The notes beneath the pieces are model-generated. The model had not been told where the DNA came from. It made no database searches and worked only from the letters and a program-made list of their open reading frames with translations. Source: a virus. Taken from it: a stretch of 26,023 nucleotides of DNA. Location: positions 1 to 26,023 of IMG/VR virus record IMGVR_UViG_3300031994_000473; one strand, 5' to 3'. This document shows, one piece after another, positions 144 to 26,023 of the stretch (its first letter is position 1; each line of letters opens with the position of its first letter). Made by a program: the position numbers and the translations under genes.

Positions 144-1163
144 TCAATTCAATGTAGCTAAGTTGGCTTTTATGTAAGCAATTTGCCTATCCGTATTATT
201 ATTAAATTTTGTCAGCATATCCGCAAAATTAACAATAGCATTAGATAACTAAATCTTATCACGTTCAGGTTCATGCGGATAGCGGTAAATTTTCTTTACC
301 CTTTGCTTTTGTTTTGTTCTCTTGATTTTATCAACTAATATAATATCATCTCCTAATTCTACCTAAAGCGGGAGCCCGCTTAATTGTAACTCATAACCTA
401 CAATAGGAGATGAATAATAATCTAAATATGCTTCAGCCATCATCTTTAGCTGTTGTGCCTATTCAATATCATCTTGTACCCAATATTGCGGCAAATATTT
501 GTCACAATATGAAAAATTCTATATTATAGGGCTTCCGTTGTTAATTGCAGTTATATTCAATCCATTTTTTCCTATTGGATATAAAACTGTTGTAAAATCG
601 TAGCACTGACTTTGTTTTTTGAGCAACTTTAACCGCAGCTCATTAGAAAAGTACATACCGCGGTTTTCCCCCATATGTCCGTAAACCCTAACTACCTTTT
701 CTTTTGTATCAAAGAAGATTTCTAAATTAAAATCCTCTTTAATTTGCTGAATAGCTTCATACGGGGTCGTCCTCAACGTATGATACTCAACCTCATTTAA
801 GTAAGTGCATTGATAATCAAGAGTCCAACTAGTACCTTCAAGAGCAGTAGTTAATGCTCCCTCAATATTCTTTTCTATAATATCATATACTGGAATTAAA
901 GTATGTTTTAATTCTTCAATGTCCGGAGAACAATAGATAGACATATACTTATAGTTATTTTCATTTACTTCTTTTATAACATAATTATAGTCTGCGGTTG
1001 TCACATATCCTTCCTATTGAACAACGGCTAAGTTCTATTCAGTCACAGGAAGTTTAAATGACAATGTCTTTAGCCCCGTATCTAACGAGGCTATGACACA
1101 CATATCCTTACTTTTATCGACTAACTTTAAGAAGTTTTTATCCGTATCATATATTTTAATCAT
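144..1163 (-). CDS. Tail-associated hub protein (Tal/gp27-like N-terminal region), 339 aa, 6 in-frame TAG
   Basis: Track ORF 519..1004 extends in frame through TAG at 1035 and 1014 upstream, and at 519, 459, 363 and 249 downstream. It starts at ATG 1161-1163 (AGGGGG upstream) and ends at TGA 144-146. The N-terminus MIKIYDTDKNFLKLVDKSKDMCVIASLDTGLKTLSFKLP and the motif YRYPHEPERDKI(TAG)LSN resemble the N-terminal region of Gram-positive siphophage minor structural/Tal proteins. Confidence 0.75.
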
Positions 1164-1175
1164 GCGGTCGCCCCC

Positions 1176-1544
1176 TTAAATGTATCTAGGTTGATACTAA
1201 ATACTTACACTAGAGGTTGCCGCATCAGTAATTGAAATTTCATTTATACCAGGTAATAAGCGAGGAAATTCCCAAGCATCATAGTCATTAAAAGCTGGTT
1301 GATCATCTTTTGTGACAGTGCGGTTGATACCATCTAATACAAGAATGGTATTTCTTTGCACTCTTGATACTCTAATAGGTTCATCACTTAAACCTGTAAT
1401 TTCCATTTGCATGACATCATTCTGGGGAACAATGGTCAGGCGGCAAGGGGCTGCCGCCGTCCCATTATTAATAATTGTAAAATCACCAGAAGAGTCAAAT
1501 TCAATAGGAAGATAAGTTTTTCCTTGTAATGACTCTATATTCAT
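1176..1544 (-). CDS. Distal tail protein (Dit) C-terminal domain encoded as a separate 122-aa protein, 1 in-frame TAG
   Basis: ATG 1542-1544 follows AAGGAGG. TAG at 1197-1199 is followed by YQPRYI and then TAA at 1176-1178. The sequence IINNGTAAAPCRLTI...LVLDGINRTVT...DAWEFPRLLPGINEISI...QPRYI fits the C-terminal half and typical ...RY(L/I) end of Sipho_tail/Dit proteins. Confidence 0.7.
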
Positions 1545-1561
1545 TGTTTTCCTCCTTATAA

Positions 1562-4500
1562 TTATCCTGCTACCGTATCTGTTGTATCAATCCAACCCAT
1601 ATTATTAACATATTTCCAGGCTTCATCTTGAATTAAATATGTTTGAGATTCAATTCTATCACCATTTTGATAAGTATGAACTAAGTATGCATCATTAGCT
1701 ATTGGTAATGAATATGCTTTTAATTCATCTTGTGAAACAATATAGGTTCTTGGATTTGCATATGTACCAGTATTTTTATTTGTATCTGTTTTCTTAATCC
1801 AACTATCTCCTGTCCAGTATAAAGTGCCATCAGTTGAATTTTCATATTTTGCAAAAATTGGTTTAACAGTTTCAGATTGTAATGTAATTGGATAAATATC
1901 CAATTTAGGAATCTTATAACTATTTAGGGAAGTTGCAGTATTATGCTGATTTCCTTTTAAAACTACCGTATCTTTTATTTCAGTTAATGTATCTGAATAG
2001 GTTTCAGAAGGTAACAATTCTAATTTATAAGAACGATACCATGCTTTGCCATCAGACCACCATAATCCTTCCACTCCATGTTCCTGATCATTTGTTGTAT
2101 AAAAGATAGGAATAACTATATCCTTATTAAGAGGATTAAATTTAGTAGAGTAAATTGAAGGTTGTTTATAATTATTAGTTCCATTATCTTTAACCTTTGC
2201 AAAATATTTAACATTATTTTTATCATATATCATAACATCATCTAATGATCCTACTGGAGAATCTGATGTATCAATAATTTGATCAAATAAAAATGGTTTA
2301 ATACCTGGGTCTGTTGTCCATGTTCTATATGGATCTTCACCCCTTGGATGTGCAGTATATTCATAAGAACTAGTGTGGTATACAGCTCCAGTAATTAAAT
2401 CTACTAAACAATGTGATCCTAATTTTTTACCATTGAAAATATATCCTTTTGGTAATGGAACAATATATTTTTGTAAGAAATAATCTTTCCAAACTTTAAA
2501 AGCATAAAATACTGGATAGTAGAATCCATGAGCAGAGCTAAAGCCATTTGCAAATATTCCTTGATGATACCAATATACTGGAGAAGGTTCATATATATTA
2601 CTACTAGGTGGTGTATATGAAAATTGACTTTGAGGAATTAAATTACGATTTTCTATAACTGCTCTTTTTGAACTATTAGTATTAGATTTTACAAGTTCAT
2701 CATTAAATTTAAACCAATAGAAACCATCCTAAAGAGGATTAGTGTTTAACTCTAATTTCTAAATTCCATCTATTGCATAGTCATCATGAGTATCTAATTC
2801 ATCACTTAATTTAACACCATAATATCCTGAATGATAATTACTTACGTTATCTTTATAACCTATAACTAAACTAATATCTCTTTTATTTGAAAAATTAGTA
2901 ATTAAAATTTTTTCAAGATTTCGACTATTAGGAAGTAAAAGCTGGCTAAAATTATAAAGAGTGAAAGTAGGATTATCATTATAACCATCTAATCGTGTGA
3001 ATAAAGATCTATAAGAACCGTCTTCACTGGTAAAGTTTGTAGCACAATTAGTTTGTAACTCCCAATCCCACATTCCACTATTTGTTGCACCGGGTGCATT
3101 ACTCCAATTGTCTAAGATCATAGTAGACATTGGAATATAAGAATCTGGAGGTAAATATGCTCTATATTTTCCATAACTTGGAATATATAAAATCCTTTGA
3201 ATTGCTGTGGTAATAATCTCTTCAAAAGTAAAGTAAACATCTTCATTATCATATGAACGAGGATTCCATAAGAATGTTCCATCTTCATATTGTTCTGAAG
3301 GCTTAAAAAGATTTTTATCTACTCCAAAGAAATCCCAAGTTAATCTAATAGGAGTATCTCTATATAAAGTGGGCTTAATTGGTTTTGTATAGTCATTTTC
3401 CATAATCACAGGATGAACTATATTAACATCTTCAATAAGAACGAATCCCCTAGTTGCGGAATCCGCTTCTAACCATACTAGGAAATAAGATTGTCCTTGG
3501 CTATTTACTCTAACTTCCTCGTCTTCAGTAACAAATCTAGTTCCAACAGGATAAGGTCCTTTTCTTCCATCCTCTCTAAAATCACCGTAGGAATATAAAT
3601 AAGTTTCAACTTTAGCAGTTAATAATCCATTATCCGCTTTATATCGTTCATATTTATTACTTGTTTCAATAAAGACATCCCAATCAGGATTCCAGTTGCT
3701 TATGCTACAAGAGAAAGCTGTTCTGCCCACTTCATATTGTTTAAAGCTTCTTTGAGTTGATACTTTAAATGGACCAAAATCAATTAATTTAACATTTCGC
3801 TTTTCAATCCAGCCCTAATCAATTTGATAAAGATTATTTTCAAAATCTAAAAGAGTAACCTCAGTTCCCTCTTCTATTGTATCTAAAACCTAAGATTTAT
3901 CTGCATTATAAATCGAAGAATCTCTTAAAATAATTCCTCTACCATAATAATCTCCAGTAGGAATAATAGAACCATTATGAATAATTTCTAATCCTTCTGG
4001 TAATGAATCTAATCTTGGATAAGTATCTTGACTCATATCGCTAGGATAATTATTTGTTTGACCTAACGCAAAGAATACATATTTTTCTTCAATATATTGA
4101 TTATCTTCTACTTCAACTTTTGATTGAATAGATACCTACTGTTGAGGAGTAATCCCAGAGTAAGTTATAGTAGCTTCTGGCGTTTCTGGCGCAAACCAAA
4201 TTACCTAATCTGTTGTATTTTTAACAATAGGATAATCAAGAGCTAAAGAAGAAGCTCTGGTAATAGTATAATCATCTTCAATATCAATATACCCATCTTC
4301 AGTTTCTAACATATCTGAATTGTCTGGACTAGCACCATAAAACTCAAAACTAGTATTAGCTTCATAGGTTTTAACTAAAGTCTATTTTTCAATATCTTCA
4401 TAAACATTAATTGCGGTGTTAGCTACAGCTAAACCAGTAGCGGTAGATTCTGTAAAGTACCTATCTTTATAATATACAACATTATAAGCATAAATAGTTT

Positions 4501-7500
4501 CTGGATATATAATATCTACATTATGTGCAGCGGTTAATTCTACACGATTAAAATTACCATTATAATTCATTTCGCCAGAATCATGGAAACGTAATTTATA
4601 TTGGTCTATTCCAAAATGATCCCCAAAGAAATCACTGAATAATTTAGACCAGCTATTGATTGTATTCCAATCAAGTTCATCTAAATGAACTACTCTAGCT
4701 TCTAATGCATTATATAATCTACCAGATTGATTAAATGATAAATCTTCTGTTTTAATCCAAGATTGATGTTCTGGACTCCAAGCCCAAAGTCTATCAATAG
4801 TCAATTTAGTAACAGTAATCATAGTTGAATATGGAACTGTAACTAAGTTTTCTGGATTTTCATCATATTCAGGATTCTGCCCTGGGCCAATAGTAGGATG
4901 AGTGTATCCAAGAATAATCCATCCTTTTGGATATTCTTTTAATCTACCCCAACCGCGTTTTTCTTCGATAACAGTATAACGTCCTTTATCTACGATTTCC
5001 GCCAATGTGCTATAAGCACGACCAGGTCCTTTATGTACCGCACAATAGTTAACATCAACATCTACTTGATAAGGAATGAAATAATCTTGTTTTTCATCCT
5101 CATATAATGCGGTATGATAATGATTAATATATTTAATTGCGCCGTTAGGATTTAAGACTCTAGCGTCTAAATCGCAATCTAAATAATTAACATCATCTTC
5201 ATTTAATGTAATTAAATCATCAGAGGCACCGCCGCGATAATAGTTAATATATAATAAATCTGGCTTCTCTTGTGCGGTAAATTCATCATAAATAACAACA
5301 GGTGATGGTGCGTCGATGAAACCTTTAATATCATTATCAATTAATAACTGTTCATTAAAAGCAATTCTACCTGGCTTATAATCTTCAGATGCATATAAAT
5401 CAACATCAATACCAAGATCTTCCAGTGAACTAGCATTTTCTATATCTTTAATGTTATAGAAAATATCTCTGCTACCAACTCTCTTGTTTCCTCTATAATA
5501 TTCAACGGTTTTAGTGAATGTTAATAATTTATAATAAATATTAGCGGTTCCTGCATTAAATATTGTCTTTAATACACTTTTCCCAACAACCTAACTATTT
5601 AAATTCCATGTTCCATATAATTCATCATTATCTAAAGATAATTTATGAGTAGTTGAATTGTACCATAAATTTTCATATCCTTCAAAATCATAATCTACAT
5701 CAAACATTCCGTTTGTATGGAAGTCATCTGGTTTAAAATCATTATATCTTAAAACTTCATAAATAGTTTCATTAGATTCTCTAAACATTACAGGAATATC
5801 AACATAATGATTGCCTAAGAAAGCATTATTTTCATCATAATAATTAATGACAATTTTACCAAATAAAGTCCAGTCATTACAAACATGGAATGGCGCAACC
5901 TAATGTGGCTAAACCTTTTTAGTTTGATTTGTATATGTCCACTGTCTATCCTCAGTGTCAATAGAGGAACTATAAGTTCCACCCTCATTAGCATTACTAA
6001 AGAAAATTTCAGTTACACGATCAAACATACCATTAGCTGGAGCTGTAAAATCATAAATTTTATCACCTTTAGCTACTGGAACTAAATCTCTTACTAATTT
6101 ATCCCTATCCCATATTTTTAAATACCATACTGCCATACGTGCGGGAACAGGGAAAGAATCAACTGGCATACCTTCATAAGCTATTGAAATAGTTTTAGAG
6201 ATATTTTGATAATGCCAACCTTGTTCAGAACTATCTGGTATAATAGTTGTAGACTCTACAGTAATCGAATTCTGGAAGCCAGTTTCATAAGGGTTATTAC
6301 TTAGTAAAACAGATAAACCATGTTGATTGAAGGTTCTTGCTCCAGTTAAAACTCCAGTAACTCGGAAAGGTTTCCAATTAATTTTACCAGTTTCTGGATT
6401 TCTAGTTATACCCAATGTTAAACTTCCTTTAGGTTTACCTCTCCATTCCCATAAATCAGTGTCTTGATTAACTAAATTATGAAATTCTGGATGCATTGAA
6501 TTTGTATAATCATACACTTCTGTATAATTATTTGGAGCATCTAAAACCATAGTTAAAGGATTACCAGCAACAAAACGAGCATGATCAATTGAACAACTAG
6601 TTATTTCTCCAAAAGGTGCGTTTGCTCTAAAATTAACCTCTGCATCTTGTATCATTCCCTTAAATGGTGAATCCTATTGAGAATCTGCGTCAAGAAAACT
6701 TGGATTAATATGTACAGCAGGACTTTTTATGCTATTTTGTGGAACAGGAATTGCACCAAACATTGGATACTAACCATGTCCCTAATTTTTGTCAACAGAA
6801 TAGGTATAGAATAAAGGAACAGATCTTAATTCTTCATCTAGAATTGAAGCTTTTCCTCGCCTCATTCCTCCATGTAATTCCCTCACTGATTCAATTGATC
6901 CATTAAGAGCATACCCATCAGGTGCATAAGGTGTTGCATGACTATTATATGAATGACCGTCCACATGAGTTGGTTGACCTAACTATCCACCATAATCCCA
7001 AAGTGTTGTCATGGTATGTCCAATATATCTAAAATCGCCGTCGTTGTTCTACGCAGCAGCTGTATAAGGTTTAGTTTGTTTTCCTAAATCCTTAATTGTT
7101 TCTTCAAAATTTTGAGCAGGATAATATCCAAAGAATCCTGCAAAATCATTACCCTTAAGTGAATAATGACTAGTTCCACCTATAGATCCTTGATTTAAAC
7201 AATAAGCCTTTATTTCACTTTTAAGCCTACCAATCTATTTAGGAGTATATCCTAAATCTAAATAAGGAGTGATAATATTTGCTTTTGGGTAGAAGGTTTG
7301 TTCCCCAAGTGAATTCCAATATGGAACAGGTAGAGTTCCCCAAGTTCCATGTGGATATCTTCCTGGAACCCATTCATCTCTAGCTATTGCTTCAGTACCA
7401 AAATCTCCTCCTTCAGCTATTTGTGTATATCCTTCAGCAGTATCAAACCAAAGAATCTTACTCGGCCAATCTTCATCATCAGGATCATGCGGCTATTCTT

Positions 7501-10500
7501 TAGTTTCATAAATAATATCTACATGACCTGCTTCAACAAGAGAAGTAAATGTATACCATGCTGTTTCGTCCGCTAAAACACCGCCCCAACAAATAATTGG
7601 TTTGTAAGCATTAAAATATGCATTTGGTAATTCATCAGTTAATTGGAACTGTTCATCATCATGCCAATCATCTACTTGAACTTGCCAATAATTGTTACCG
7701 ATTAAGTTTTCTTCATCCACCTCATCCGTATAATATCTAATTTCAATGCTAAACGGAGCAGGATCATATAAGATTTTATATTCACTCTTTAAAACATCTG
7801 GTGAGTAAAGATTTTCATCTTCAAGATACCATAAATAGTTTAAACCTTCTTTATAGAAACTTACACCAGATATTGCGGATTGCGGTCTGAATTGATTAAA
7901 ATTAATATGTTTTTCAATAAACTCGCCATCTGCAAATTGAGTTTCATCAAGAGATAAGGTAACTTCCCCAACCTTCTCATAAGACTCAAGTTTATTAAGT
8001 GGAGTAATACCAAAGACCTTCCGCCAATAGGTAACCTTAGTTGTATAAACTTGCGGATTCTCAACCTCTGTATATACAATAGTATAAGGTGAGTGTTCTA
8101 AGATACGTCTTAGTGTTACTTTTGTTTCAGGATATTCATAATTAACTTTATAATTATCCGGTTTATATTTTAATAACGGAACTATCTGTCCAAAAGTAGG
8201 AACTGATAAGAAATCTTTTTCAGTAAGTTCAATCACGTCTGATGTGATTAAATTGTTTTCATCATCTGCGCTATCTCTATAATAATTAACAGTAATATTA
8301 TAACTAATACTTTCATAATTAACATGGAATGTAAAGTTATTTACATTATCAAAATTAATTACTCCAATATCAGCTAAATTAACAATCGTACCACTGCCGC
8401 AATAGTTAGGTTGAAAATCATCCATAAATAAATTGGTGCTTTCAATCCAGTTACTATTTTCTGTGAAATCACTACCTCTAAAGTAATAGGTAACTGTATT
8501 AAATAATACGTTATCTTTATAATAATTTACATAACATTTTCCAATCTTATGCTCTGGATCATCATCTACTACATCAGGGTCATCCATGATATTAAAACTA
8601 TTTAATCCAGTTACATCTTCAAAGAAATTCTCTGTAATCTTATCGTAAAGACAATTACTTGGAGCAATCTTATCACCAATCTTATCAAAGAAAGCAACAG
8701 GGACAAAGTCACGAATTAACGTTCCGTCATAATAAATTTTACAACTCTTAATACCAACACCTGCAATACCGCCTTTATAAGAACCGTTATAATCACAAGC
8801 AAATAAATAAAGCGGGAGGTTCATTGGTACATGATTAGATTGAACTAAATGTGTAAAAGTAATAGTACCATAACTGTACCCTTCTCTTGTAGAAGAAGAA
8901 ATACCAGTATTAGAACTAAAACCTTCAGATGCATTTTCTTCAACAATTAATTCTGGTGTGCCGCGGCCAGCAGCTACGTTAAATGTATTAACACCAGTCA
9001 TTTCAGCCTTAGGACCGAATTGAGTATTATTACGATACTTAATATAATAATTACAATCCGCAGATACAGAACCGAATAAATAAGCATCTCCTACATTTAC
9101 ATTGTAAAGAGGTTCAGTGTCAAATACTCTGTAAGTATCTACTAAAACTGTTAATTTACTAACATCATCGCAAGTTACTCCAGTATTGATATAAGCATGA
9201 TTTAATGTCCAGTTTGTATATAAATTCTCAAACTCACCCATATCATTATGTTGTAAGAAAAGAATTCTATGTGGATAGTTAATTCCACTTGGATCAACTG
9301 GTTCACTTTCAGCTGTGTACACAATATCAATAGATTCAACAGCTCTCAATGCAGAGAAATTAACTGGTCCAGTATATTGTACCTCACCATTGCCGCAATA
9401 GCTAGGTTTGAAACCATTAATATCTAATCCTAAATCAGTTAAAGTAGTATTAGTTGAAAAACTTAATACAGTATAATTTAAAGTATCTGATCCAATCCAG
9501 TTCTCATCAGCTACTTCATCTGTATAATATCTAACTGATGTGCTATATTGAGTTGCGGAATATAATACATTATATGTTCCTTGTATATCTTCAAAAGTTA
9601 AAATAGCAGTTGCGGATTCCCCATCTATAATACCATCATTATAATATTCAGGTTTATGAGCATTTAAGTCAAACAATGAAGCTAAAGTAACTCCACCGCC
9701 CACCTGTGATTCTTCTATTGTTATGATAGAAGTATTAATGGTACTATACATTGATGCTAACTCTTGTTTATACTTAATAACAATACTTTTAGTACGAACT
9801 ACATCAACTTCTTTATATGCAATCTTAATTGGTGCATTTGCTAATAATGTAGCTAATTCAACAGCACCTTGATAAGAGTTATCTGCATCAAAAATATATC
9901 CTTCTGGACGTAATAAGTTAATATTAACAATCTGTGCAAGCGCAGGTGAATTTAAGAATTGAGTGGCATTAATTTGAATAGTTCTTGATTCAAGCTTTTC
10001 ATCATCTTGATAATAATCAACAACTAAATCAAAATCTTTTGCACTATAAAATATTTGTAAAACACCCACATCAATTAAATCATCAAAAGAAGTAATTGAA
10101 CCTTGTACGTTAAACAATCTTCCAGAATTATACTCTACAGTTAAATACCTATCTAAATCAATATTAACCGCCGCTAATATATCTTCCGCATTATCATAGC
10201 TAGTTTTATATTTAATTAAATGTGTATGAGTTGTAATTCTACTCCAATTTGGATAAGAACCATAAAAATATTCCACATACACGCGGTTTTCGGTTAATGG
10301 ATAATTAATCTGTACTGACGTTGGTAAAGTTTCAAAAGTAAGTTCTGTATTAGAATCCATGTTAACTACAGTTCCAGAATTATAATACTTTTGAGGTTTA
10401 TATAGGTCTTTATTAATAAAGTCCGTAATTTTTGCTCCGGGAAGAACATCACCTTCGCCGATAATATAAACAGTGGCGTCTTTAAATTCAAATTGACCGC

Positions 10501-11446
10501 TATCATTTTCTGTGTAGAATGTAACAGTTAATTCTTTTTTCTGTTCATTTGCAATATATTCATATCTAACTGTGAGATAAGGTAATGATATAAGACTTGT
10601 AAATGAGAAAACATATGGAGACGCATCGTTGAAATCTGTTAATACTCTAGTACCATTAGGTTTATTTCTTGAAAAATCAATTAAATCACCTAAACTATTT
10701 GCATTATCAACTTGTTCTTTTGTAAAATTAAGAACAGTATCCTCAATCCAAGCATACTCGCCATCTTCTTCTGTTTGTCTATAAAAGCTAACTTGCTTTT
10801 GATACACAATAGGAGCATAGTTAATAATTAAAGTACCAACATCTTTTAAATTAGAAAAAGTTAATTCCTTATTATTAAAATTAGCAATAACTCCACTCTG
10901 AAAATATTCAGGTTGATATTTATTTAATACAATCCCAAGAGAATCAAATGTAGTATTCTCATTAAAATCTGATGCTTTAATCATTACATCATCAGTAGAA
11001 AGTAAGGTATTGCCATTCCTATAATAAAGAACTTTTAATTTAAAATAATCAGTAGCAACAGTATCAGTGGTATATACTTCTGTACCACCTCTTGCGTAAT
11101 CACTCTACAAATTGAATGTTAAAACGAAATTACCATTCTTTAATCTGTTTTGTGATGCGGCGCCCCGCATTGTAACATCAAATATCAAGTTAATATCATC
11201 AAATATGATACTAGCTTTCTTTAACATTGATGTTAACTTACTCATAACTAAGAAGGCTTCAGCTTCATCATCTTTTAATACTAAGAATTTAAGCTGAATA
11301 TTTTTAAATTTATCTTGCTGTCTAATAAAAGTTGGTTGATTATCACCCTCCAACCAGTCTCTTGAAGTTTCAACCGTATTGCTCTGGATAACCCGGTCAT
11401 AAAGCTGAATCCCAAGAGTAGACAGGTCTATGCCATTAATTAGCAT
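1562..11446 (-). CDS. Giant 3,294-aa tail/baseplate adhesin: Dit N-domain fused to >12 MucBP-like repeat modules, three fibre-tip-like modules and several SH3b-like modules; 18 in-frame TAG
   Basis: Track ORFs 11105..11446, 7493..10984, 6782..6964, 5909..6655, 5591..5788, 4382..5005, 2759..3730 and 1562..2233 all lie in one frame. In-frame TAG codons are at 11105, 7493, 7235, 7049, 6983, 6782, 6770, 6674, 5909, 5900, 5591, 4382, 4205, 4136, 3890, 3815, 2759 and 2729. I scanned every inter-ORF gap for TTA/TCA (minus-strand TAA/TGA) in this frame and found none. ATG 11444-11446 follows GAGGAGG, and the gene ends at TAA 1562-1564. The first 113 aa (MLINGIDLSTLGIQLYDRV...FDDINLIFDVTMRGAA...NGNFVLTFNL) resemble the Dit/Sipho_tail N-domain. 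Confidence 0.8.
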
Positions 11447-11646
11447 TAATTACCTCCTCTTCTTTGGATTTCTAATCCAATATGGTTTAATAAGTTATTC
11501 ATTGACTAATCATCTTGCATAGAATAATCATTTATCGGCATTGGAGTTGACTCAATATGCGGTAAACCGCCATTAGAGTTTTGAATGTTTCTTCTGATAT
11601 TCTATTGCATAGCTTGATTAGTATCTCCAATATTTGTGATATTCAT
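11446..11646 (-). CDS. 66-aa protein at the position normally occupied by the tape measure gene; 2 in-frame TAG
   Basis: ATG 11644-11646 follows GAGGGA. TAA 11446-11448 overlaps the giant-gene ATG (TAATG). Translation: MNITNIGDTNQAMQ(TAG)NIRRNIQNSNGGLPHIESTPMPINDYSMQDD(TAG)SMNNLLNHIGLEIQRRGGN. Confidence 0.5.
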
Positions 11647-11647
11647 T

Positions 11648-12193
11648 TTATTCCCTCAAGATTCCAAGATTCTAAAATGTTTTATTTCTTTCTTCTAAAG
11701 AAGCTTTTTTATAGCCGATATCCTATACTAATGTAAGCGGTTCAGCCTAAGAATTAAAAGCTTCTCTAATTGCCATAATCATTATATTTCCTTCTAATTC
11801 TTTTCTTTTCAAGTAACCCTAATAAATGAGATTAGCCTCATGTGGAGAGAGGTTATAAAAATCTTCAATAGACATTCCAACCTCTCCTACCAACACTTTA
11901 CATAGCTAATCAAACTAAAGAGGGTCCATTTGTAAAATATACTATTTAATTTCATCAAATGAACCCTCAATATCGAAAGAATTAAAAAGAGAGAAAAGGA
12001 TTATGCTTAAAGCATCTGGACAAGTCTTGTATACCTATTGCCAGTTGTCCTTCCTGTCAATAGCTAGAAAGAAAAGTTTCTATAAAAGAATCTCCTCGTC
12101 TTTCACATTATATAAAAAATCTTTTAATAGGGTTAAATACTTCAGACCAAATTTGAAGGAATAAATTTGACCATTTATCTCCCTTATTATCAT
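11648..12193 (-). CDS. Tail assembly chaperone-like protein, 181 aa, 9 in-frame TAG (highest density in the window)
   Basis: ATG 12191-12193 overlaps the major-tail TGA (ATGA). TAG at 12080, 12035, 11942, 11915, 11906, 11819, 11747, 11723 and 11672; TAA at 11648-11650. I scanned this frame and found no TAA or TGA. The N-terminus MIIREINGQIYSFKFGLKYLTLLKDFL and the position after the major tail gene fit a gpG-like chaperone. The C-terminal half begins MSIEDFYNLSPHEANLIYQGYLKRKELEG. Confidence 0.55.
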
Positions 12194-12576
12194 TCTAAAG
12201 CGCCAACCCCCAAAAGAGTAATAGAATAAGTATAAGCCTTATTAAATGCGGCAGTGAGTGGCATATTGGTAATTAAAGCTTCGCCCTAATATTGTTTAAA
12301 GTTGTCAGTTAATTTAACCCTGATTTTCTATCCATCCTGAAATGCTTGTTCTAGGGCATCCCATGCTTCCTGATCCTTTATGAACACTCCGCCGCATCTT
12401 AAAGACCAACTTTTTAAGCCCGCAATGTTTTCCTCCCAGTCTCCATGAATCTGATTGGTGATTTTTATAGGAGACATTTGTCTATTTAATATACAGTTCT
12501 ATTGGCCACCAATCACTTTGTCTCCAATGTAAAGAACTGCGTCTACTCCCTTATGCGGAGGTTTAACCATTTTCAT
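12190..12576 (-). CDS. Major tail (tube) protein, TP901-1/phi13-like family, 128 aa, 3 in-frame TAG
   Basis: ATG 12574-12576 follows GGAGG; TGA at 12190-12192. The sequence GVDAVLYIGDKVIGGQ(TAG)NCILNRQMSPIKITNQIHGDWEENIAGLKSWSLRCGGVFIKDQEAWDALEQAF...Y(TAG)GEALITNMPLTAAFNKAYTYSITLLGVGAL follows the Phage_tail_2 pattern (G..W.e...G.k.w.i...G......a...l...., y.G.a.i.s, l.G.G.l). Confidence 0.8.
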
Positions 12577-12967
12577 TTTCAACCTCCTACTCCATTCCAT
12601 TGCAATAGAAAGAGATAGTCAGGACACCATGTTTCCGCATTACTCCTGTAGATTTATCATCTAAAATGCGGAAGGTCTCATTTACATACACTATTCCATC
12701 TATTGCATAGAACTGCTATAATTCATCAAATATTTCTGCTTCCATATCAAGTATCTATTGCTATCCATCGTATTCAGAAAAAATATGTACTTGATATCTA
12801 ACAACACATTGATAATTCTTATTATATCTATCTCTATTTACTGTTGATAATCTAATTTCAATACAAGGAAATTTATCTTGTCTTCTCTTTGGATTATCAA
12901 TAACTTGATAGTTTGCATATTTAGTAGAGAGTATTTCAAATAATTTTGTTTTAATTTTATTTATCAT
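12563..12967 (-). CDS. Tail terminator/tail completion-like protein, 134 aa, 4 in-frame TAG
   Basis: Track ORF 12761..12967 (AAGGAG RBS) continues through TAG at 12761, 12755, 12716 and 12587 to TAA at 12563-12565. It sits directly upstream of the major tail gene, and its size fits DUF3168-like terminators. Confidence 0.5.
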
Positions 12968-14039: not shown

Positions 14040-15254
14040 TTATGTTAACGATACTGTCCAACCCTTTGCAGTTGCTACTGCTATTTCTGCGGCAGTGAGG
14101 TCTGCTATTGCTCCTCCATCTGTTGCAGATCCTTTGTTAGTAGCATTTTCAAATGTAATAGTATTAGTACCACCTGCTGTTGCTATATATGCACTAGTAT
14201 CTGGGAGTGAATTAATAGTGTTTACCGCACTATCATGATTATATCTTGAATACTCAGGTAGAGTAGTAAACCACCAATCTTCATTTTTTAATGCTTCATA
14301 ACTTGCTGCATCGGTAACTTCTTTAGTAGTATCAAAATATGTATCCTTACTAAAACCAACAGGAGTAACACCATAATCAGCAAATACTTTAAAATTTTGA
14401 CTTTTATATTCTCTAACTACTGGAGCGTTATTTTCCATTAAAAAAGTTATATCTTTAATGCAATATAAATTAGCACCGGCTGTTCCAAACATATTTGCAG
14501 TTATAGGAGCTACTTGTTGACTTGAATAACCCCTATATAATGGAAGATTTAAACTTGTTAAACTATAATCTTGACCAAAACCTTGAGAAAAATTTAAAAG
14601 GCCATATTGAGATGAATTTGTTACAACAGACCACCAACTGAGATCAGGAATAGTTTTTAATTTATAACAATGTAAAAATGTCTGTTGTGGGGTTTGTTGA
14701 AATTTATTCTGTATCGCAAATAACACATCTGAATTATTTGTTAAAAAATCAAAAAAATTAGATGGAATAGACTATAAAGAACGACAATCATAAAAAGTTC
14801 CATTTGCAGTTAAATTAAACCCAGTCCGAAGATTTGGGTTATTATTTAAATTTAAAGTAATTATAGGTAATTTTTTTACATTACTAGTACGAAAAGAATA
14901 ATTTACCTGTACTGTAACAGATGAAGCATTAGCAGAAATAGTTAAAGGCAAAGTATAACTAGAAAGATCCTACAAACTTGTAGTCTAAGCAATATTACTT
15001 AAATTTGAATCTCCTGTAAAATTTATTTTATTCTTTAATAAATCTTTTAAAGCTATAAAAACTTTACTACCAAATAGATTTGATCCATCAAAGGGAAAAT
15101 TAATAGTAGGAATTTCTGCTCCACCACCGCCTTCAATAGCGGCAATAGCATCAGCCATATCACTAGGATAATAAGTAGTTTGTGTTCCATTTTGTTCTCT
15201 AATAGCATCGGCAATATCAGTAAGCGTGCTATCATTAATTAATACTACACTCAT
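14040..15254 (-). CDS. Fibre/receptor-binding candidate with BspA-type leucine-rich-repeat-like core, 404 aa, 3 in-frame TAG
   Basis: Track ORFs 14985..15254 and 14040..14726 are in one frame and are joined through TAG at 14985, 14970 and 14772. No TAA or TGA occurs in that frame. Motifs: N-terminal LTDIADAIREQNGT...MADAIAAI; Cys-containing repeats (CRSL(TAG)SIPSNFF, FLHCYKLKTIPDLS); C-terminal AAEIAVATAKGWTVSLT. Confidence 0.6.
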
Positions 15255-16921
15255 TAATATTGTACCTCCTCTGCATTAGTAAGATTAACAGAAATGACAC
15301 CATTAACAATGCTAATTCCAGTACCTGCGGTATAAGTAGCTCCTGCCCCATCCTGTCCATCTTGACCATCATATACATTAAAATCAGTATTACGAGAATC
15401 TCCTGTCCCATAACTAAATGCGACATTATGTCCTCCGGTTATCGAAGTTACTGTAACAATAGGTGTGATACCATCTTGTCCTGTTCCACCTCCGCCGCCA
15501 GTTGCGGAAATCACTCCATTAGTAATTTCAATACCAGTTCCCGCTGTATATGTCGTATGTTTAAATAAAGGAATTACTTTATTACTCCATGCGCTATATT
15601 GATTATTATAACCATTATACTAATAAATACGACCATATATATTATCAAGGTCCCGGAAAGAGTCACCAAGACCCAAGAAATAAATAAATAATCTTGTTCT
15701 ATTATTAGAATTTTCATTTGTTCCCCAGCATCTATCTGGGTCTAAATCAAAATACGCATATCTTATCGTTGTGTAGTTGGTCGTTATTGTAGTAGAGTTA
15801 GGCAAAGTCTCCCAAGAAAAAGCTGTGCTTCCATTATAGGAAGAACTAGTTGGAACTCCAACACTTGGGAGACATACATATCCATAAGTATTTACAGGTA
15901 TATTTTCCAATTTTGATGGGAAAAACATTCCAGTTTTAGGAATAGCATCTCTCAAATCAGTCTCTGAATAATCAAAATAAGTTAAATTATTAAAAATACC
16001 TGGTTTAATATCTCCACCTGTTCCATCTTGACCATCCATTACATCAAAATCAGTATTTCTTTGATCACCAGTACCATAATTAAATGCTATGTTGTGACCA
16101 CCAGTAATTGAAGTTACTGTTACTGTTGGAGTAATACCATCATCTCCATCGGTACCATTTGTACCATTTGTCCCTGCGGGACCTTGCTCTCCTTGAGGTC
16201 CAGTCGCACCTGTTGCACCATCTTGACCGTTTGTTAAATCAACTTCAGTAGTGCCAGCAATATCAGTTACCGCTAAATGATAACCATTACTTGTTTGTGT
16301 TACAACAACAGAGGGTGAAAAACCATTATTACCAGTATCTCCCTTTTCACCTTTTGGACCCTGAACACCTTGCGGGCCGGTCTAACCTGTATCTCCTTTT
16401 GGTCCCGTATCACCAGTATCCCCTTTTGGACCTTGAATACCTTGTGGACCTTGCTATCCTTGAGGACCAGTTTCACCCTGTGGTCCTTGTACCCCTTGAA
16501 TACCCTGAGGTCCTTGAGCTCCGGTTGCACCAGTGTCACCCTTATCTCCCTTGTCACCTTTATCTCCCTTAAGAGAAGCTTTCTGCTCAGGAGTTAAAGA
16601 TTCAAAAGTAACAGCACCATCTTCACCTTTTGGTCCTGCTTCACCGGGATCTCCTTTATCACCCTTATCACCTTTTGGTCCTTGAGGTCCAGTCTATCCT
16701 TGCGGTCCCCGCAATCCTTGGTTACCATCATCACCTTTTGGTCCTTTTAATGAAGCTAACCACTGTGCTTCAGTCCCGCTAAATCCGTTTTCAACAGCAA
16801 CTTCGTAAGCACTTAATCCATTGCCTACGACTCTAATAAACCCCAGTTCTTCGCTATTCTCTGCCTGGGTTGGGGTAATATTCTTTAACGAATAAAGAGT
16901 TGCGGTAATATCATTTGCCAT
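15254..16921 (-). CDS. Collagen-like (Gly-X-Y) fibre protein with an internally duplicated beta-module, 555 aa, 4 in-frame TAG
   Basis: Track ORFs 16694..16921, 15620..16039 and 15254..15514 share one frame. TAG at 16694, 16454, 16382 and 15620; TAA at 15254-15256. Long GXY runs are present (GPKGDKGDKGDPGEAGPKGEDG..., GATGAQGPQGIQGVQGPQGETGPQG...). Confidence 0.8.
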
Positions 16922-17874: not shown

Positions 17875-18786
17875 TTAAGGATTTGTAGTTCCGCCTTGAG
17901 TACCGCCACCTTCGGTACCTCCGCCTTGAGTTCCACCTTCGGTACCTCCGCCTTGAGTTCCACCTTCGGTACCTCCGCCTTGAGTTCCACCACCAGCAGC
18001 GGCAGCACCAGTTGTAATCTTAACAACCTTAGTAGCATCAGTAAGAGCAACGAGGGCTACTTTACGAGCAAATACTTTATTGTTACGGTAGTTGGCATCT
18101 CTTTCCTGTTCAATTTCAGAACCTTTCTTAATGAAAAGAGTAACTGCTTCAGCGTTAGCAAGGAATGCAGTATTTTCAGGAACTGCCTTAGAAACAATTA
18201 CAGGAACACCACATACTGTTCCAATGTAACCAGTTCTTACGAAATCTTCAACATATTTAAGGTCATCACCAAGAGCCTTTCTAACTTTGGCTTTGTCACC
18301 TGTGTTGATAAGAATGAAATAACCTGTTTCATCTTCAAGATCTAATTTAGCAATAGCATCAACAACAGCATCAAATGTAAGTCCTGTTGCGGAAGCGTCA
18401 TATGTAATAGTAGCCTTACCAAATTCCGCAATCGCTTTTCTTGTAAAGTCATTTGTCATGCGGGTTGCAAGTCCATAAAGACCAGCATCTACTACCATAG
18501 GATCTTTCATTTCTTGTTCATCGTAGTATTGGAATCTACCCTGAGTAACACCTACAACGTAGTCCACATCAGTGAAGCTAACTTCGATGTCATCTGTATT
18601 ACCTTCACCCATTTCAAGGTCTTCAACATCACCAGTAGAAGTGTAAGTATGAATAGTCTTAATCATACCTGCATTTTCTGTAAGTGAAGTATCTACTGTC
18701 ATATAAGATTGAAGATTAACATTAGTAGTAAGTAAATCTTCAAGTTTATTTTCTAATACAAAATTTTCATATACTTTATGAGCCAT
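17875..18786 (-). CDS. Major capsid protein (HK97-fold, N4-gp56-like family of Firmicute phages) with a Gly/Thr/Gln/Glu-rich repeat tail; no TAG
   Basis: Intact 303-aa ORF after the scaffold gene, with AAGGAG RBS and a TAA stop. Its position, size and sequence style (…GRFQYYDEQEMKDPMVVDAG…FIKKGSEIEQERDANYRNNKVFARKVALVAL) fit a major capsid protein. Confidence 0.75.
   Translation of the reverse strand: MAHKVYENFVLENKLEDLLTTNVNLQSYMTVDTSLTENAGMIKTIHTYTSTGDVEDLEMGEGNTDDIEVSFTDVDYVVGVTQGRFQYYDEQEMKDPMVVDAGLYGLATRMTNDFTRKAIAEFGKATITYDASATGLTFDAVVDAIAKLDLEDETGYFILINTGDKAKVRKALGDDLKYVEDFVRTGYIGTVCGVPVIVSKAVPENTAFLANAEAVTLFIKKGSEIEQERDANYRNNKVFARKVALVALTDATKVVKITTGAAAAGGGTQGGGTEGGTQGGGTEGGTQGGGTEGGGTQGGTTNP
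17891..17991. repeat. 27-bp tandem repeat (~3.6 copies) encoding GTEGGTQGG units at the capsid protein C-terminus
   Basis: ccgccttgagttccaccttcggtacct is repeated head to tail. The first copy carries a 3-nt insertion. The repeat forms a GC-rich island in an AT-rich genome. Confidence 0.9.
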
Positions 18787-18805
18787 AATTATAATCTCCT
18801 TCTAT

Positions 18806-19375
18806 TCATCGAGTTGTCATCTGTTTATACAACTCTGGATTTGTTCTATATAATTCGGCTTGCTGTGATACTGTAAGTTTTGCGAACTGTTCTTTAGTCA
18901 TGCCAGTTTGCGATACTGAACTTCCCTTTGGAGCGGGAGTCGCTAACCTAGAATTTACAGCATCCGCAAGCGCAGCCTTCCATGCCTTCTCAAAATTGTT
19001 AATGTTTTCCATCATACTTTCGGCATCGTCGGTCACAATGTAATCTACAAATTGTACTGGCAGCCCTCTATCCGCAAGAACCTTTGATGCACTTAACTTA
19101 TTCTGTGTAAGTGCAAACTCTCTTTCTTTTGCTTCGAGTTCTGCAACTCTTTTTTGAAATTCATATTCTTTCTTTTGAGCTTCATCCATATCACGCAATT
19201 TCTCAGCTTCTGCGCGTTCATTTTCAAATTTCTGTTTCTGTTTCTTAAGTGCGGATGTCACTCTCCTATCAGCTTCCTGTTGCAGAAGTTTATCAACTTC
19301 TTCTTGTGTATAGGTCTTAACCTCTTGAACTGTTTCCTCTGCCCCAGTCTCAACTGTTGTTTTATTTTCTTCCAT
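18806..19375 (-). CDS. Capsid scaffolding protein (DUF4355-like), 189 aa; no TAG
   Basis: Intact ORF directly upstream of the capsid gene. It is charged and coiled-coil rich (EEVDKLLQQEADRRVTSALKKQKQKFENERAEAEKLRDMDEAQKKEYEFQKRVAELEAKEREF), with a TGA stop. Confidence 0.7.
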   Translation of the reverse strand: MEENKTTVETGAEETVQEVKTYTQEEVDKLLQQEADRRVTSALKKQKQKFENERAEAEKLRDMDEAQKKEYEFQKRVAELEAKEREFALTQNKLSASKVLADRGLPVQFVDYIVTDDAESMMENINNFEKAWKAALADAVNSRLATPAPKGSSVSQTGMTKEQFAKLTVSQQAELYRTNPELYKQMTTR

Positions 19376-19477: not shown

Positions 19478-20011
19478 TTATTCGATTTTGTCCTAAAATT
19501 TCCAAACAAAACCTTTATGTTTTAAACCTTGATTCATAGCCATAGATAAGGTATTTTTATTATACCCAGTGGCTGCAGCAGCCTTAGCTACAGATTCGAA
19601 ACGACCAACTTCATTTCCACCTGAATCGTATTGAACAATATCTTTGTTAAAATGTTCTTTTCGTTTGTCAATTCTACGTTTTTGTACATTACCATAGTTT
19701 ACATTATATTTTGATGTACACCATTCAAGGTTTTCAACATTATTATTTTCCTTATCCTAATCAATGTGATTTATTTGCGGCAACCCCTCTGGATTAGGAA
19801 TAAAAGCTTCTGCAACAGCCCTATGAACATATTTCTGTTTATATTCATATTTACCAGTAGCTAACTTAACCTTTAAATATCCTACTCCTTTTTGAGTGCG
19901 GCTAGAATAAGGTTTAAGAATTCGTTGTGTTTCTTTATTGCGGACTCTTCCTTGTGTGCTTACTTCATATCTAGGAAAATCCTAAATTGTTTTCCAGGTT
20001 TCTTGTTTCAT
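19478..20011 (-). CDS. HNH homing endonuclease (NUMOD4/HNH_3-like), 177 aa, 3 in-frame TAG
   Basis: ATG 20009-20011 follows AAGGAG. TAG at 19982, 19757 and 19493; TAA at 19478-19480. The sequence WKTI(TAG)DFPRYEVSTQGRVRN...GYLKVKL...YVHRAVAEAFIPNPEGLPQINHID(TAG)DKENNNVENLEWCT is the classic phage HNH_3 signature. Confidence 0.8.
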
Positions 20012-20095
20012 AATCTATTTCTCCTTTGAATAATTCTTTCTACCATTATTCAAAATTATAAGAAATAAATTATATAAACTTGACCAAATTTTTTG

Positions 20096-20953
20096 TCAGT
20101 TTTCCTTTTCAAACTAGTCATATGCACAAAAGGAACAAGCACAATTAGGATGATATGGAGGTAAATCAACTCCAACATCAGCTTCTGCAAGCGGGATAGC
20201 CTATCCTACATAATCTAAGCAAATCCCTCCGCATTCCGCATCACCAATTATTTCCACATATTTAACACCACTCTATAAATAGGTATCTTTAGTGGCTTTG
20301 CTATAAATTGCCATTGTTTCGGTTCTAATAAGCCGTCTAGCTTGATATGCAGCAAATCCTGTTAGCTTTTGAAGTTCTTCAGTCATTTTATCTAATGACC
20401 AACCATTGTGAATTCCCTACAACAGAACAGAGCGAAGCTTAGAATCAAGAGTATCAACAATGTAGTTTGATCTATCTTTAAATGTTTTCTTGTCTTCACA
20501 CCATGGCTCTAATACTTTCTTCTTAATATCAATAGGAAGAATGAAATTCTTATTACCAACGGATTGCGCGGTCGCCGCTGCCGTCATCTAATAATCTAGA
20601 ATTAACCATGCCATTAATCTGTTGTTCTGTAATTCTTTTAAGTCACGCCGCATTTGCCTAAGGGTCTATTCCATCTAGGTAATATGCCCTCCCCGCATCA
20701 ATGAATGTGCAAGCGCTTGGTATCGTTTCATATCAATCGATCCCCGCTTAAAATAAAACGGGAACTCGTCTTTATACAATTTTTCTAATTTGATTAAGAC
20801 CTATTTATAGTCTTTAACTATATCGTTTTCAACTTCTTTAGCATCCGCTAACAACTAAAGAACTAAATCAAGCTCGTCTTGATAACTCTACTGATTATTG
20901 TAATCACTCTTCTTCTTTATTATCTTTTTCTTCTTCTTCTTCTCTTGACTCAT
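20096..20953 (-). CDS. Head morphogenesis protein, SPP1 gp7 / Mu F-like, 285 aa, 10 in-frame TAG
   Basis: ATG 20951-20953 lies inside the portal 3' end. TAG at 20888, 20855, 20801, 20675, 20666, 20588, 20417, 20273, 20201 and 20114; TGA at 20096-20098. I scanned the frame and found no TAA or TGA. The C-terminal IIGDAECGGICLDYVG(TAG)AIPLAEADVGVDLPPYHPNCACSF matches the family motif. Confidence 0.75.
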
Positions 20954-22277
20954 CCTAATCCTCTCCATTTAATCCCAATCTTACGTCATAGAAAGGATTA
21001 GCTTCTTGCTCTTTATCGAGTCTTTGAATTTCAGCTTCAACATCTTCAACAAAAGGAAGTTGAGCAAGTAAAGTCTCACGAGATACTTTACCAGATAATG
21101 TACTAACCATATTTGCAATTTCGGTATCATTTGAAGGAAGATTACGAGTAAATGTAATATCAATAGCTCGCCAATCAAACGCACTACCTTTTAATGCGGC
21201 GATGTTAAATATTAATTCAATCCTTCTCTGCAATCCACGTTTAAATTTACGCTCTTTAATTGCAACGACGTTTTCCATTGGTAATGTTTTATATTTAATT
21301 GCTACTCCTGAAGCATTTCCGCTAAACGCAGTATCGCTCATATCAGGAGTTTTAGAGAACTTATGAATATCTCTATCTAATCTATTCTTAACATTCTCTA
21401 TTGTTGTATCTGACCCTTGCTTAGTAAGCCATTTGGCATCAGAGTTTTCATCTAATAAAATGATACGATTCTCTTTCATAGCGGCGACATCGTCTTTATC
21501 CGCATTGAGACCAGATAAACAAAGATATGCATCTACAAAATAATCAAAGTCATCAAGAGAATCAGATTCCATCTTATCATAAGCGTCAATTAACGAAAGG
21601 ACTGGTTCAAAATCTCCAATCTCTTCTTCGTTATTTTCAAATACTACAATAGGAACAGAACCAAAATAATGCGGCGCCTCCGCTTCAAAGGTCAGAGTAC
21701 TCAAGTTCGCATCACTCTTATAATGCATCACTTTTGTATCTGAATAAACCTAAACTCTATAATACACTTCTTCAGATTCGATATCTTCACATTCAAAATA
21801 GCGGATGCCGTATAAAAGATCTTCATTAAGAGTATCGTCATATACAAGTACAATCTCTCGTGGATCCAATCTCTTTAGCCGCGTCTGCGCATCTTCATCT
21901 AAATAAACTAATTCAACAGCAAGACCAAAAATACTCATGTCTTTAGCTAACTCAATATTTTCATCTTGCTAATCAGTGTACTATAAAATCATTTTTAATT
22001 CATCCGCTGCTTCTTCAATTTCAGAAGAATAAGAAACACCCTAACCCATAAAATAACCTGTTAGAGTATCTGTAATGTAGCTTGCATACGGATGTGCAAT
22101 ATTATTACATGGAAGAGTCTCATCTGTTTTCATTCTTTGTAAAATAGGATTCTTCGCATGATAATAATTATCTAATTTATTAAGTCTAGCGATATCTCTC
22201 ATCCTATGTTTATCAATTAATTTCTTAATGATTTCAACAGTAAGAGGAGTCTATCTGCTTATCTTATACTGAGGCAT
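20904..22277 (-). CDS. Portal protein, SPP1 gp6 family, 457 aa, 6 in-frame TAG
   Basis: ATG 22275-22277 follows AAGGAGG. TAG at 22251, 22041, 21981, 21969, 21750 and 20955; TGA at 20904-20906. Motifs: KLIDKHRMRDIARLNKLDNYYHAKNPIL..., NNIAHPYASYITDTLTGYFMG(TAG)GVSY, and an acidic C-terminal tail. Confidence 0.85.
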
Positions 22278-22707
22278 CTTTGTCCTCCTTATCATTATAA
22301 ATCTCTCGTAATTCCTACATTAAATTATCAATATAACTATTACCGCCTTCATTCTTATAATGTTTATAGCGGCGTTCCAATAAATCCATTTGCATACTAT
22401 CTAATATACTTGGATCTTTTTTACATTGTTTATACAACATTACAATCCAGCTTTTTATACCATCTAGATCGCTGACTAAAAGTGAATCAAGCTTTTCGGT
22501 AATCTACTGTAATTGATCTTTTAGTCCCTTAACTTCCTACACAAGCCAGGTTAATAATTCTTTTTCATCTCGTACTTTATCAACCTGTTGAACAGTTTTA
22601 TTTTTAAAGAAGTCATACACTTCATAAAACTATTTACATGCTACTCCAAACATAAATAAAAATACAATAGTAAACTACAATGAATATTTTGAAAAGAACT
22701 AGACCAT
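22264..22707 (-). CDS. Membrane-anchored coiled-coil protein (holin-like candidate?), 147 aa, 6 in-frame TAG including codon 3
   Basis: ATG 22705-22707 follows AAGGAGG. TAG at 22699, 22675, 22630, 22537, 22504 and 22315; TAA at 22264-22266. It has a hydrophobic N-terminal segment FTIVFLFMFGVAC followed by heptad-like charged sequence. Confidence 0.55.
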
Positions 22708-23961: not shown

Positions 23962-24385
23962 CTGCGTCCTCCGGCAGATCATTTACAATAACAACTTGTT
24001 CTTTAACATTGGCTTCAATAGTAGACTTAGAAGATTGAACACCTAATTGCTTTTGTAATAAATCTAATGCCTTTAACTGAACCTGCGGAGTGTAGACCGT
24101 ATCGCCCTTCTCAGCGAAACCCATTTCTATTAATTTTCGAGCTACATTTTCTGCCCCAAAACCCAATGATTCAAGTATTTCTTGCTCTCTAATTCTCTTA
24201 TATTCTTGAACTTTTGGGTTTCTTAACACTTGAGATGCATTCTTACTATTCTTAATAGGTTCCCCTTTATCTCCATAAACTGCAATATAAGCAGCAACAG
24301 GATCATAAGGTAATGTAGAAATTAACCTTTCCACAAAAGCAAGTTGTTGTGGTTGTAAATTAGGTTTCTCTTTAAGTTCGACCAT
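23951..24385 (-). CDS. terS: Terminase small subunit, 144 aa; no internal TAG, ends at TAG (TGA 3 codons later)
   Basis: The second ATG (24383-24385) has AGGAGG 7 nt upstream. The sequence QQLAFVERLISTLPYDPVAAYIAVYGDKG...ASQVLRNPKVQEYK fits small terminases of the Terminase_2 type. The gene lies directly upstream of terL and overlaps it. Confidence 0.75.
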   Translation of the reverse strand: MVELKEKPNLQPQQLAFVERLISTLPYDPVAAYIAVYGDKGEPIKNSKNASQVLRNPKVQEYKRIREQEILESLGFGAENVARKLIEMGFAEKGDTVYTPQVQLKALDLLQKQLGVQSSKSTIEANVKEQVVIVNDLPEDADGN

Positions 24386-26013: not shown

Positions 26014-26023
26014 AATAATTTTA
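25899..26023. repeat. Terminal direct repeat, copy B
   Basis: Identical to 12..136. Confidence 0.9.

Follow-up and report, generated by a model that had tools for sequence, protein, structure and literature searches.

The distal tail protein Dit is regarded as the fixed hub of the adhesion devices of Gram-positive siphophages, and its known variation consists of modules inserted in its outer domain. The gene of the tail-associated protein, Tal, normally follows the Dit gene, which in the classical case comes after the tape measure gene; the classical two-domain protein is a hexameric ring between the last ring of the tube and the trimer of Tal. In the 'evolved' Dits of Lactobacillus, lactococcal and streptococcal phages, carbohydrate-binding modules are inserted in loops of the galectin domain (PMC7291167), and a ring-only Dit is represented by lambda gpM (PMC7291167). 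Here we analyze a pair of genes at positions 1,176 to 11,446 of the IMG/VR virus record IMGVR_UViG_3300031994_000473, a stretch of 26,023 nucleotides (nt) that we refer to as the window. We are reasonably confident that the pair represents a conserved fission of the Dit gene in uncultured siphovirus-like phages of ~26 kb, whereby the ring domain anchors a polypeptide of ~3,000 residues and the galectin-like domain is made as a separate protein. A Dit hub cut in two, with one half anchoring a fibre, would be a different route to a receptor-binding device, and it offers structural biologists a natural experiment on whether the galectin-like domain can do without being covalently joined to the ring.

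Like the classical two-domain Dit, the gene pair of the window encodes a ring domain that has a belt hairpin, plus a galectin-like domain for the periphery, and lies directly upstream of the Tal gene; its products are homologous to canonical Dits of 226-243 amino acids (aa), and both halves match solved Dit chains. Unlike in the classical protein, the two domains are on separate polypeptides, the ring domain continues into ~3,170 further residues, and no tape measure gene precedes them. The likeness to the evolved Dits is that the hub itself would display host-binding modules, but here the galectin domain is uninterrupted, and the added mass, 10-20 times larger, comes after the ring domain, with a stop and a new start behind it. 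A ring domain without a covalent galectin domain, with other C-terminal parts possible, is also seen in lambda gpM, T5 pb9 (OB fold) and the 671-aa Dit chain of Bxb1 (9d93), whose extensions are, however, far shorter than the fibre of the window. We know of no separate adjacent gene for the galectin domain in the genomes of lambda, T5 or Bxb1. No description of a split Dit was found in the literature searched. The elements of the locus are as follows (ORF, open reading frame; L and P numbers denote related loci and proteins).

1562..11446, minus strand: giant ORF, Dit ring domain plus a fibre of ~3,170 residues; 3,294 sense codons and a TAA, with 18 TAG read through.
11066..11446, minus strand: Dit N-terminal ring domain, residues 1 to ~127 of the giant protein (hhalign, exhaustive profile search, AlphaFold2 model of P0019, Foldseek).
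11105..11107, minus strand: TAG codon 114, a sense codon inside the last ring-domain strand, unconserved (alignments, model, relatives).
1565..11065, minus strand: putative fibre or adhesin part (fragment self-BLAST, comparison with L003 and L006).
4895..5107, minus strand: segment similar to the C-terminal end of phage amidases, residues 2114-2184 (phrog_1794, E-value 2.7e-6).
1545..1564, minus strand: junction between the giant gene and the small ORF, with TAA 1562-1564, AAGGAGG 1551-1557, a 6-nt spacer and the ATG at 1544.
1176..1544, minus strand: Dit C-terminal galectin-like domain protein, 122 aa (PF22768, phrog_33, hhalign, P0054 model).

All long ORFs of the window are on the minus strand, and the standard code shatters them. 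When TAG is read as a sense codon, minus-strand open frames of at least 100 codons grow from 15.2 to 26.0 kb; little is gained with TGA or TAA. Gene calling under the standard code breaks the giant gene, which takes up 38% of the genome, into 19 pieces. Its frame opens with the ATG at 11446 and stops at the TAA at 1562-1564, and all 18 internal in-frame stops are TAG, the first of them being codon 114 (11105-11107). The 122-codon ORF (1544..1176) begins 17 nt past the giant gene's TAA in a different frame, ends with the TAA at 1176-1178 and holds a single TAG, codon 116 (1197-1199).

Profile and model comparisons identify the N-terminus of the giant protein as a Dit ring domain, that is, a tube-protein-like split barrel with a belt hairpin. 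By hhalign, giant residues 1-127 correspond to columns 5-131 of a canonical ~230-aa Dit profile (E 7e-37), a match that is partly by construction since the Dits of that profile had been found with the N-terminal profile. The latter, an alignment of the first ~120-160 giant residues used as query of an exhaustive hidden Markov model (HMM) search, retrieved 164 proteins at E <= 0.001. Their lengths include 1,971-3,214 aa (eight proteins), 1,215 aa (one), 364-1,054 aa (about thirty) and 214-281 aa (many). The last group, with many canonical proteins of 226-243 aa, had E-values of 1e-24 to 1e-5. PF22768 is present in the C-terminal half of 31 out of 37 of these short homologues, which are ordinary Dits. 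In an AlphaFold2 model of P0019, a relative with 58% identity, there is a long beta hairpin (residues 13-30 and 39-56), along with a helix at 61-75 and three strands, of which the final one spans residues 107-119; beyond it come a linker of low confidence (122-125) and, from residue 134 on, a second domain. The hairpin fits the Dit 'belt'. Foldseek searches with this model returned as best Protein Data Bank (PDB) matches the solved Dits of TP901-1, monocin, NF5, SPP1, 80alpha, Bxb1 and p2.

The same ring domain also heads proteins of 470-1,054 aa (P0098-P0125) that carry InlB B-repeat (Flg_new_2) domains and no PF22768. In the more distant relative L007 (5001-7541), the protein that it heads has 846 aa and InlB B-repeat domains, and next in order are a 219-aa ORF and Tal. 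The 219-aa product has a C-terminal motif resembling the small Dit protein of the window, with a weak hhalign match (E 0.047) and no Pfam match.

The 122-aa ORF clearly encodes the C-terminal domain of Dit. It matches PF22768, the C-terminal domain of SPP1_Dit, over the whole model (1-97/97) with residues 27-121 uninterrupted (E 3.3e-10), and phrog_33, 'distal tail protein Dit', with an E-value of 4e-18. By hhalign it corresponds to columns 135-236 of the canonical Dit profile (E 6e-35), and this match is independent of the N-terminal profile. A model of its relative P0054, built with 23 homologues, reached a predicted local distance difference test score (pLDDT) of 84 and a predicted template modelling score (pTM) of 0.76. 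The best Foldseek matches of this model were the Dit chains of monocin, 80alpha, NF5, SPP1, Douge and p2; the template modelling (TM) score against SPP1 gp19.1 was 0.65-0.67, and the chains matched (9j1k_K, 6v8i_AC, 9m8o, 2x8k and 8zdo_m) are the same as those matched by the model of the ring domain. 

Together, the two proteins of the window thus cover one canonical Dit with neither overlap nor loss (columns 5-131 plus 135-236), which places the cut at the inter-domain linker of an ancestral Dit. A preliminary description of this DNA, made from the sequence alone, had read the locus as a distal tail protein whose N-terminal ring domain ends exactly at the TAG at 11105 and whose galectin-like half is re-initiated after a 9.5-kb insertion. 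The layout that it gave (ORF coordinates, 17-nt gap, AAGGAGG, change of frame, a 122-aa ORF of its own) is borne out on the sequence, and the profile and structure searches found Dit homology for each half. What did not hold is the boundary, since the last strand spans residues 107-119 and homology runs to ~127, and the insertion: there is no Dit sequence on both sides within one ORF, and the giant ORF is better described as a C-terminal extension of the ring domain with its own stop.

Relatives were fetched through both halves, giving 14 related loci and, with the window, 15 loci; L001 and L008 are uninformative for the downstream end, owing to an early contig end in one and a broken frame at codon 86 in the other. 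The same split was found in all 14 related loci checked: the giant gene stops at TAA or TGA and is followed by a separate PF22768 ORF of 114-134 codons. At loci containing the gene start, the giant orthologues are intact and have 2,844-3,257 codons. The gap between the stop and the next ATG is 0-18 nt, usually with GGAGG or AAGGAG, and the stop and ATG abut at two loci. From locus to locus, the second gene is shifted by 0, 1 or 2 from the frame of the first, and a fixed frameshift or read-through therefore does not join them. The small ORF has 31 homologues in the database, all of them short (70-180 aa) and stand-alone, without an N-terminal domain; the small protein is 50-85% identical across the phage family; and the order of genes is tube, chaperone-like, 66-aa ORF, giant gene, small Dit gene and Tal. 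Because the split is present at all loci, the offsets vary and all small homologues stand alone, the fission is a family trait and not an error. The frame break of the long relative L008, at codon 86 of its ring domain (10001-10258), may be an assembly error or a disrupted gene.

The remainder of the giant protein has the architecture of a fibre. A beta module of ~100 residues is present in about ten diverged copies, beginning with residues 134-249 directly after the ring domain, and there are two related modules of ~120 residues (816-942 and 1700-1816). The protein is collinear with its L003 orthologue, with 52% identity over residues 1-2328 and 28% over residues 2572-3293, the C-terminal third being the most divergent. 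In the PHROGs search of the giant protein, only the amidase-tail segment was found; Pfam gave no domain on the whole L003 orthologue, and a faint SH3_3 match is recorded for the L005 orthologue (precomputed Pfam). From its amidase-like similarity, the segment of residues 2114-2184 could be a cell-wall-binding region, possibly SH3b-like. The repeated modules, the fast-evolving distal third and the segment resembling a wall-binding region fit a function as a host-adhesion fibre.

The data establish which domains the two halves are, that they complement each other along a canonical Dit, that the small ORF has a start of its own, that the layout recurs in relatives and that TAG 114 does not; the ring hexamer, its six arms, the return of the galectin-like domain and the role as adhesin are inferred. 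Taken together, these data suggest a mechanism in which an ancestral two-domain Dit was cut at its inter-domain linker. Six ring domains (residues 1 to ~127) would form the Dit hexamer, and from the rim of this tail-tip ring each would extend into an arm of ~3,170 residues made of beta modules and a probable cell-wall-binding segment. The galectin-like domain would be translated alone from the coupled downstream start, with its own Shine-Dalgarno sequence and ATG, and would then re-dock non-covalently at the periphery of the ring, next to Tal.

Several points weigh against this scheme. For the ring domain, the Foldseek E-values are modest (1.6e-4 to 3e-3) and the TM scores low, the latter because the query has two domains. 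Pfam and PHROGs searches of giant residues 1-298 gave no Dit match, PF05709 (Sipho_tail) did not match the window protein at E up to 1 and was reached weakly by only 2 out of 37 bridging homologues and one mid-size relative, and searches against the sequences of PDB chains, with a single sequence and with a profile, returned nothing. The structure models represent relatives (58% and 85% identical) and not the proteins of the window. Hardly any domains can be recognized in the fibre, so that the term 'adhesin' rests on its architecture; the binding of the small protein to the ring is something that we infer; and with no tape measure gene, the tail tip may not assemble as in a textbook siphophage.

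The best surviving alternative concerns that binding. The small PF22768 protein may have left the ring after the fission and become an independent baseplate or carbohydrate-binding protein, for example on Tal or on the fibre. The stand-alone proteins begin with a segment of ~20 residues (first 20 codons, window positions 1485-1544) with invariant Y11, P13 and I14, which has no counterpart in canonical Dits and is disordered in the monomer model. We regard it as a candidate docking peptide, but it could dock on any partner, and lambda gpM shows that ring-only Dits exist (PMC7291167). Yet in every relative the gene has stayed at its ancestral site, with the ring gene on one side and Tal on the other, and the identity of the protein across the family is what would be expected if it had remained in the same complex. 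We therefore consider the loss of ring binding unlikely and retain re-docking as the preferred reading.

The other alternatives that have to be weighed concern TAG codon 114. One of them holds that it is a generic early abort gate which spares the cell the translation of 9.9 kb unless a suppressor is active, the released peptide having no function. Borges et al. (bioRxiv 10.1101/2021.08.26.457843) propose that recoded stops restrain late and lytic genes until a switch of code. A TAG is present within the first 14-254 codons in several recoded relatives, and the absence of TAG from the capsid and scaffold genes indicates that TAG use varies by gene. But the position is not conserved (the first TAG in the giant gene of the recoded relatives is codon 14, 205, 254, 390 or 1468, the last being that of L009), sister phages with the standard code do without any gate, and the same data fit neutral drift of a sense codon equally well. 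A gating role is quite improbable on this evidence.

In the preliminary description, the same TAG was a stoichiometry valve: if incompletely suppressed, it would give free 113-aa ring subunits next to ring-fibre fusions and so set how many ring subunits are armed. As weighed here, the valve is a leaky stop, under selection at the domain boundary, whose set ratio of products would limit how many of the six ring positions have an arm. Codon 114 is the sole TAG among the giant gene's first 1,317 codons, accounting for 1 of 86 glutamate-like codons there versus a share of 0.15 in mid-gene, and this region is as TAG-poor as the capsid gene. Since no suppressor tRNA is encoded, suppression may be incomplete, and any shortfall would release the 113-aa peptide. 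The alignments are contrary to the proposal, which fails the check on conservation in relatives that came with it. In ten aligned relatives the residue at position 114 is L, T, K, T, S, S, T, R, R and S, and TAG occurs there only in the window genome; the aligned codon is CGA in L009, the closest long relative, and CAA in L020. Six relatives (L003, L005, L012, L013, L016 and L017) have no TAG anywhere in their giant gene of 2,844-3,240 codons, and in the other recoded relatives the first TAG is elsewhere. Conservation continues across the codon (SDYAKGxREVYTT), which is in the middle of strand 107-119, and homology to canonical Dits runs 13 residues further, to ~127. A 113-aa product would miss half of the ring domain's final beta strand, so that its fold would be incomplete and a free functional N-terminal Dit is not supported. 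Moreover, as 17 more TAGs follow in the gene, the main effect of incomplete suppression would be to lose the full-length product and not to tune it. By our own estimate, the chance of a TAG within ~13 residues of a boundary is ~15%, given 18 TAGs in 3,294 codons. The valve was thus abandoned as very improbable. The oddity of the lone early TAG counts as weak and would point at most to a generic early abort point where suppressor activity is lacking; codon 114 is an ordinary sense codon, one of 83 TAGs in long ORFs, without a special role. That a TAG resembling a designed boundary proved to be a mere sense codon is a practical lesson.

The weakest alternative, that the split is an artefact of one 'evolved Dit' gene broken by an assembly error or joined by programmed frameshift or read-through, could appeal to the shared frame of the giant and small ORFs in L003 and L005, but it is scarcely credible given that 15 independent contigs have a TAA or TGA and then a Shine-Dalgarno sequence with ATG or an abutting ATG, that offsets of 0, 1 and 2 speak against a joined gene, that the ORFs of L003 and L005, in both of which TAG is a stop, are kept apart by an in-frame TAA plus an in-frame TAG, and that all 31 small homologues are short and stand-alone.

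The genes adjacent to the split Dit are those expected of a tail module, with the exception of the tape measure gene.

144..1163, minus strand: Tal, tail-associated protein with a gp27-like N-terminal region (PF06605 Prophage_tail, E 2.8e-31; PF18994).
11446..11646, minus strand: 66-aa ORF in the place of the tape measure gene (position, C-terminal motif).
11648-12193, minus strand: chaperone-like protein (weak Phage_TAC_12 match, E 0.05).
12190-12600, minus strand: tail tube protein (PF06199, E 1.7e-14; phrog_1407, E 3e-27; matches within 11648..12600).

No tape-measure-like ORF is present anywhere in the complete genome. The 66-aa ORF has counterparts of 44-76 aa in relatives, in which only the C-terminal motif NxIGLExQRxGG is conserved, and no family match was obtained for it in Pfam or PHROGs. 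It may be a vestigial ruler, implying a very short tail. The possibility that it is a frameshift extension of the chaperone was rejected, as the frame relation differs among relatives. A literature search on phages without a tape measure returned nothing relevant. The L007 locus likewise has no tape measure gene.

TAG is used genome-wide, with 83 occurrences in window ORFs of at least 150 codons. In-frame TAGs number 11 in TerL (22717-23982), 10 in the Mu F-like gene, 9 in the chaperone-like gene, and 6 each in the portal (20904-22295) and Tal genes; the capsid and scaffold genes have none. As a share of glutamate-like codons, TAG amounts to 0/22 and 0/26 in capsid and scaffold (17875-19375) and to 0.34-0.38 in TerL, the Mu F-like gene and the chaperone-like gene; within the giant gene, the low share of codons 1-1317 has a parallel in the last 388 codons (2907-3294; 0/15). 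To assign a meaning to TAG, TAG-containing ORFs were aligned to their orthologues and amino acids were scored by the genome's own substitution counts. In single comparisons with L003, L006 and L008, glutamate was favored over glutamine by 29, 25 and 40 log units, respectively, and in the comparison with five standard-code genomes pooled by 72 log-likelihood units. At 20 TAG sites of the window with at least 70% agreement among at least four relatives, 18 were glutamate and none glutamine. Sites with conserved glutamate include LCWIE-TAG-A and ADSA-TAG-PRSI in TerL, which we take to be the Walker B catalytic glutamate and a conserved motif of the nuclease domain. At the TAG of the small Dit protein (codon 116), an alignment (A6) has glutamate in 21 of 22 relatives, the exception being P0054 with Q. 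Codon usage is in line with these results: GAA plus GAG make up 6.3% of the window codons versus 7.1-7.8% in L003 and L006, and the addition of TAG brings the figure to 7.45%, with glutamine codons already at a normal 3.4%. The window phage, and L010, to which the identical test also assigned glutamate, thus appear to read TAG as glutamate; the same test gave glutamine for L006, L011, L014, L015, L018 and L019. Judged by these alignments, one ~26-kb phage family seems to hold members with the standard code (L003, L005, L012, L013, L016 and L017), with TAG as glutamine and, apparently, with TAG as glutamate, and no tRNA was found in the sequence stretches of these loci. A sequencing or base-modification artefact turning GAG into TAG was considered and rejected: 95 GAG codons remain, the TAGs share no context, and the protein ending at TAG 114 occurs on three contigs.

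The final 125 nt of the window (25899-26023) are identical to positions 12-136. Because of this overlap the contig closes on itself as a 25,887-bp unit, and the window is taken as a complete circular or terminally redundant genome of ~25,887 bp. ARAGORN and Rfam searches revealed no tRNA in this complete genome or in six related loci, and hence no phage-encoded suppressor tRNA(CUA); no other Rfam family was found in the genome. The capacity to decode TAG would therefore have to be supplied by the host or some co-resident element. Borges et al. (bioRxiv 10.1101/2021.08.26.457843) list only the reading of TAG as glutamine and of TGA as tryptophan among phages with a code unlike that of their host, and a suppressor tRNA(CUA) in only 35-40% of code-15 phages. 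A literature search on TAG-to-glutamate recoding in phages found no report. The window resembles the code-15 gut phages (crAss-like, Lak, Garnet and Topaz) in having in-frame TAG in most structural genes and few TAG-free genes, TAA and TGA as stops, a small genome like those of the 24-kb Garnet and Topaz, and sister lineages with the standard code. But in those phages TAG aligns with glutamine, whereas in the window it aligns with conserved glutamate and no suppressor tRNA is encoded.

If TAG does stand for glutamate here and for glutamine in sister phages, then the family records a shift in the meaning of a recoded stop, which bears on how phages gain access to charged suppressor tRNAs. The most unexpected results lie beside the split Dit, namely the apparent TAG-to-glutamate reading and the tail without a tape measure, and the former could matter more than the split Dit itself. 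As for the whole combination, i.e., TAG as glutamate in the window phage (and probably in L010), decoding by the host or a co-resident element, a split Dit with six arms of ~3,300 residues and no tape measure, we lean towards it with limited confidence.

Contigs related to the window are 23-27 kb in length. Among the window products scanned with Pfam and PHROGs, no integrase, polymerase or lysin was recognized. The phage has no cultured relative, because its capsid protein is only 26-28% identical to those of Firmicutes siphophages and a tblastn search of GenBank phages with the 224 N-terminal residues of the giant protein returned no match. Between the head-tail connector and neck genes, which is an unusual site for fibre-like proteins, the minus strand codes for a 555-aa collagen-like (Gly-X-Y) protein (15254-16921) and a 404-aa protein with no assigned function (14040-15254). 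A gene similar to HNH/NUMOD4 homing endonucleases is situated between the Mu F-like and scaffold genes (19478-20053, minus strand); the Pfam domains were detected only on its L006 and L008 counterparts, and in relatives a similar gene is found at other positions.

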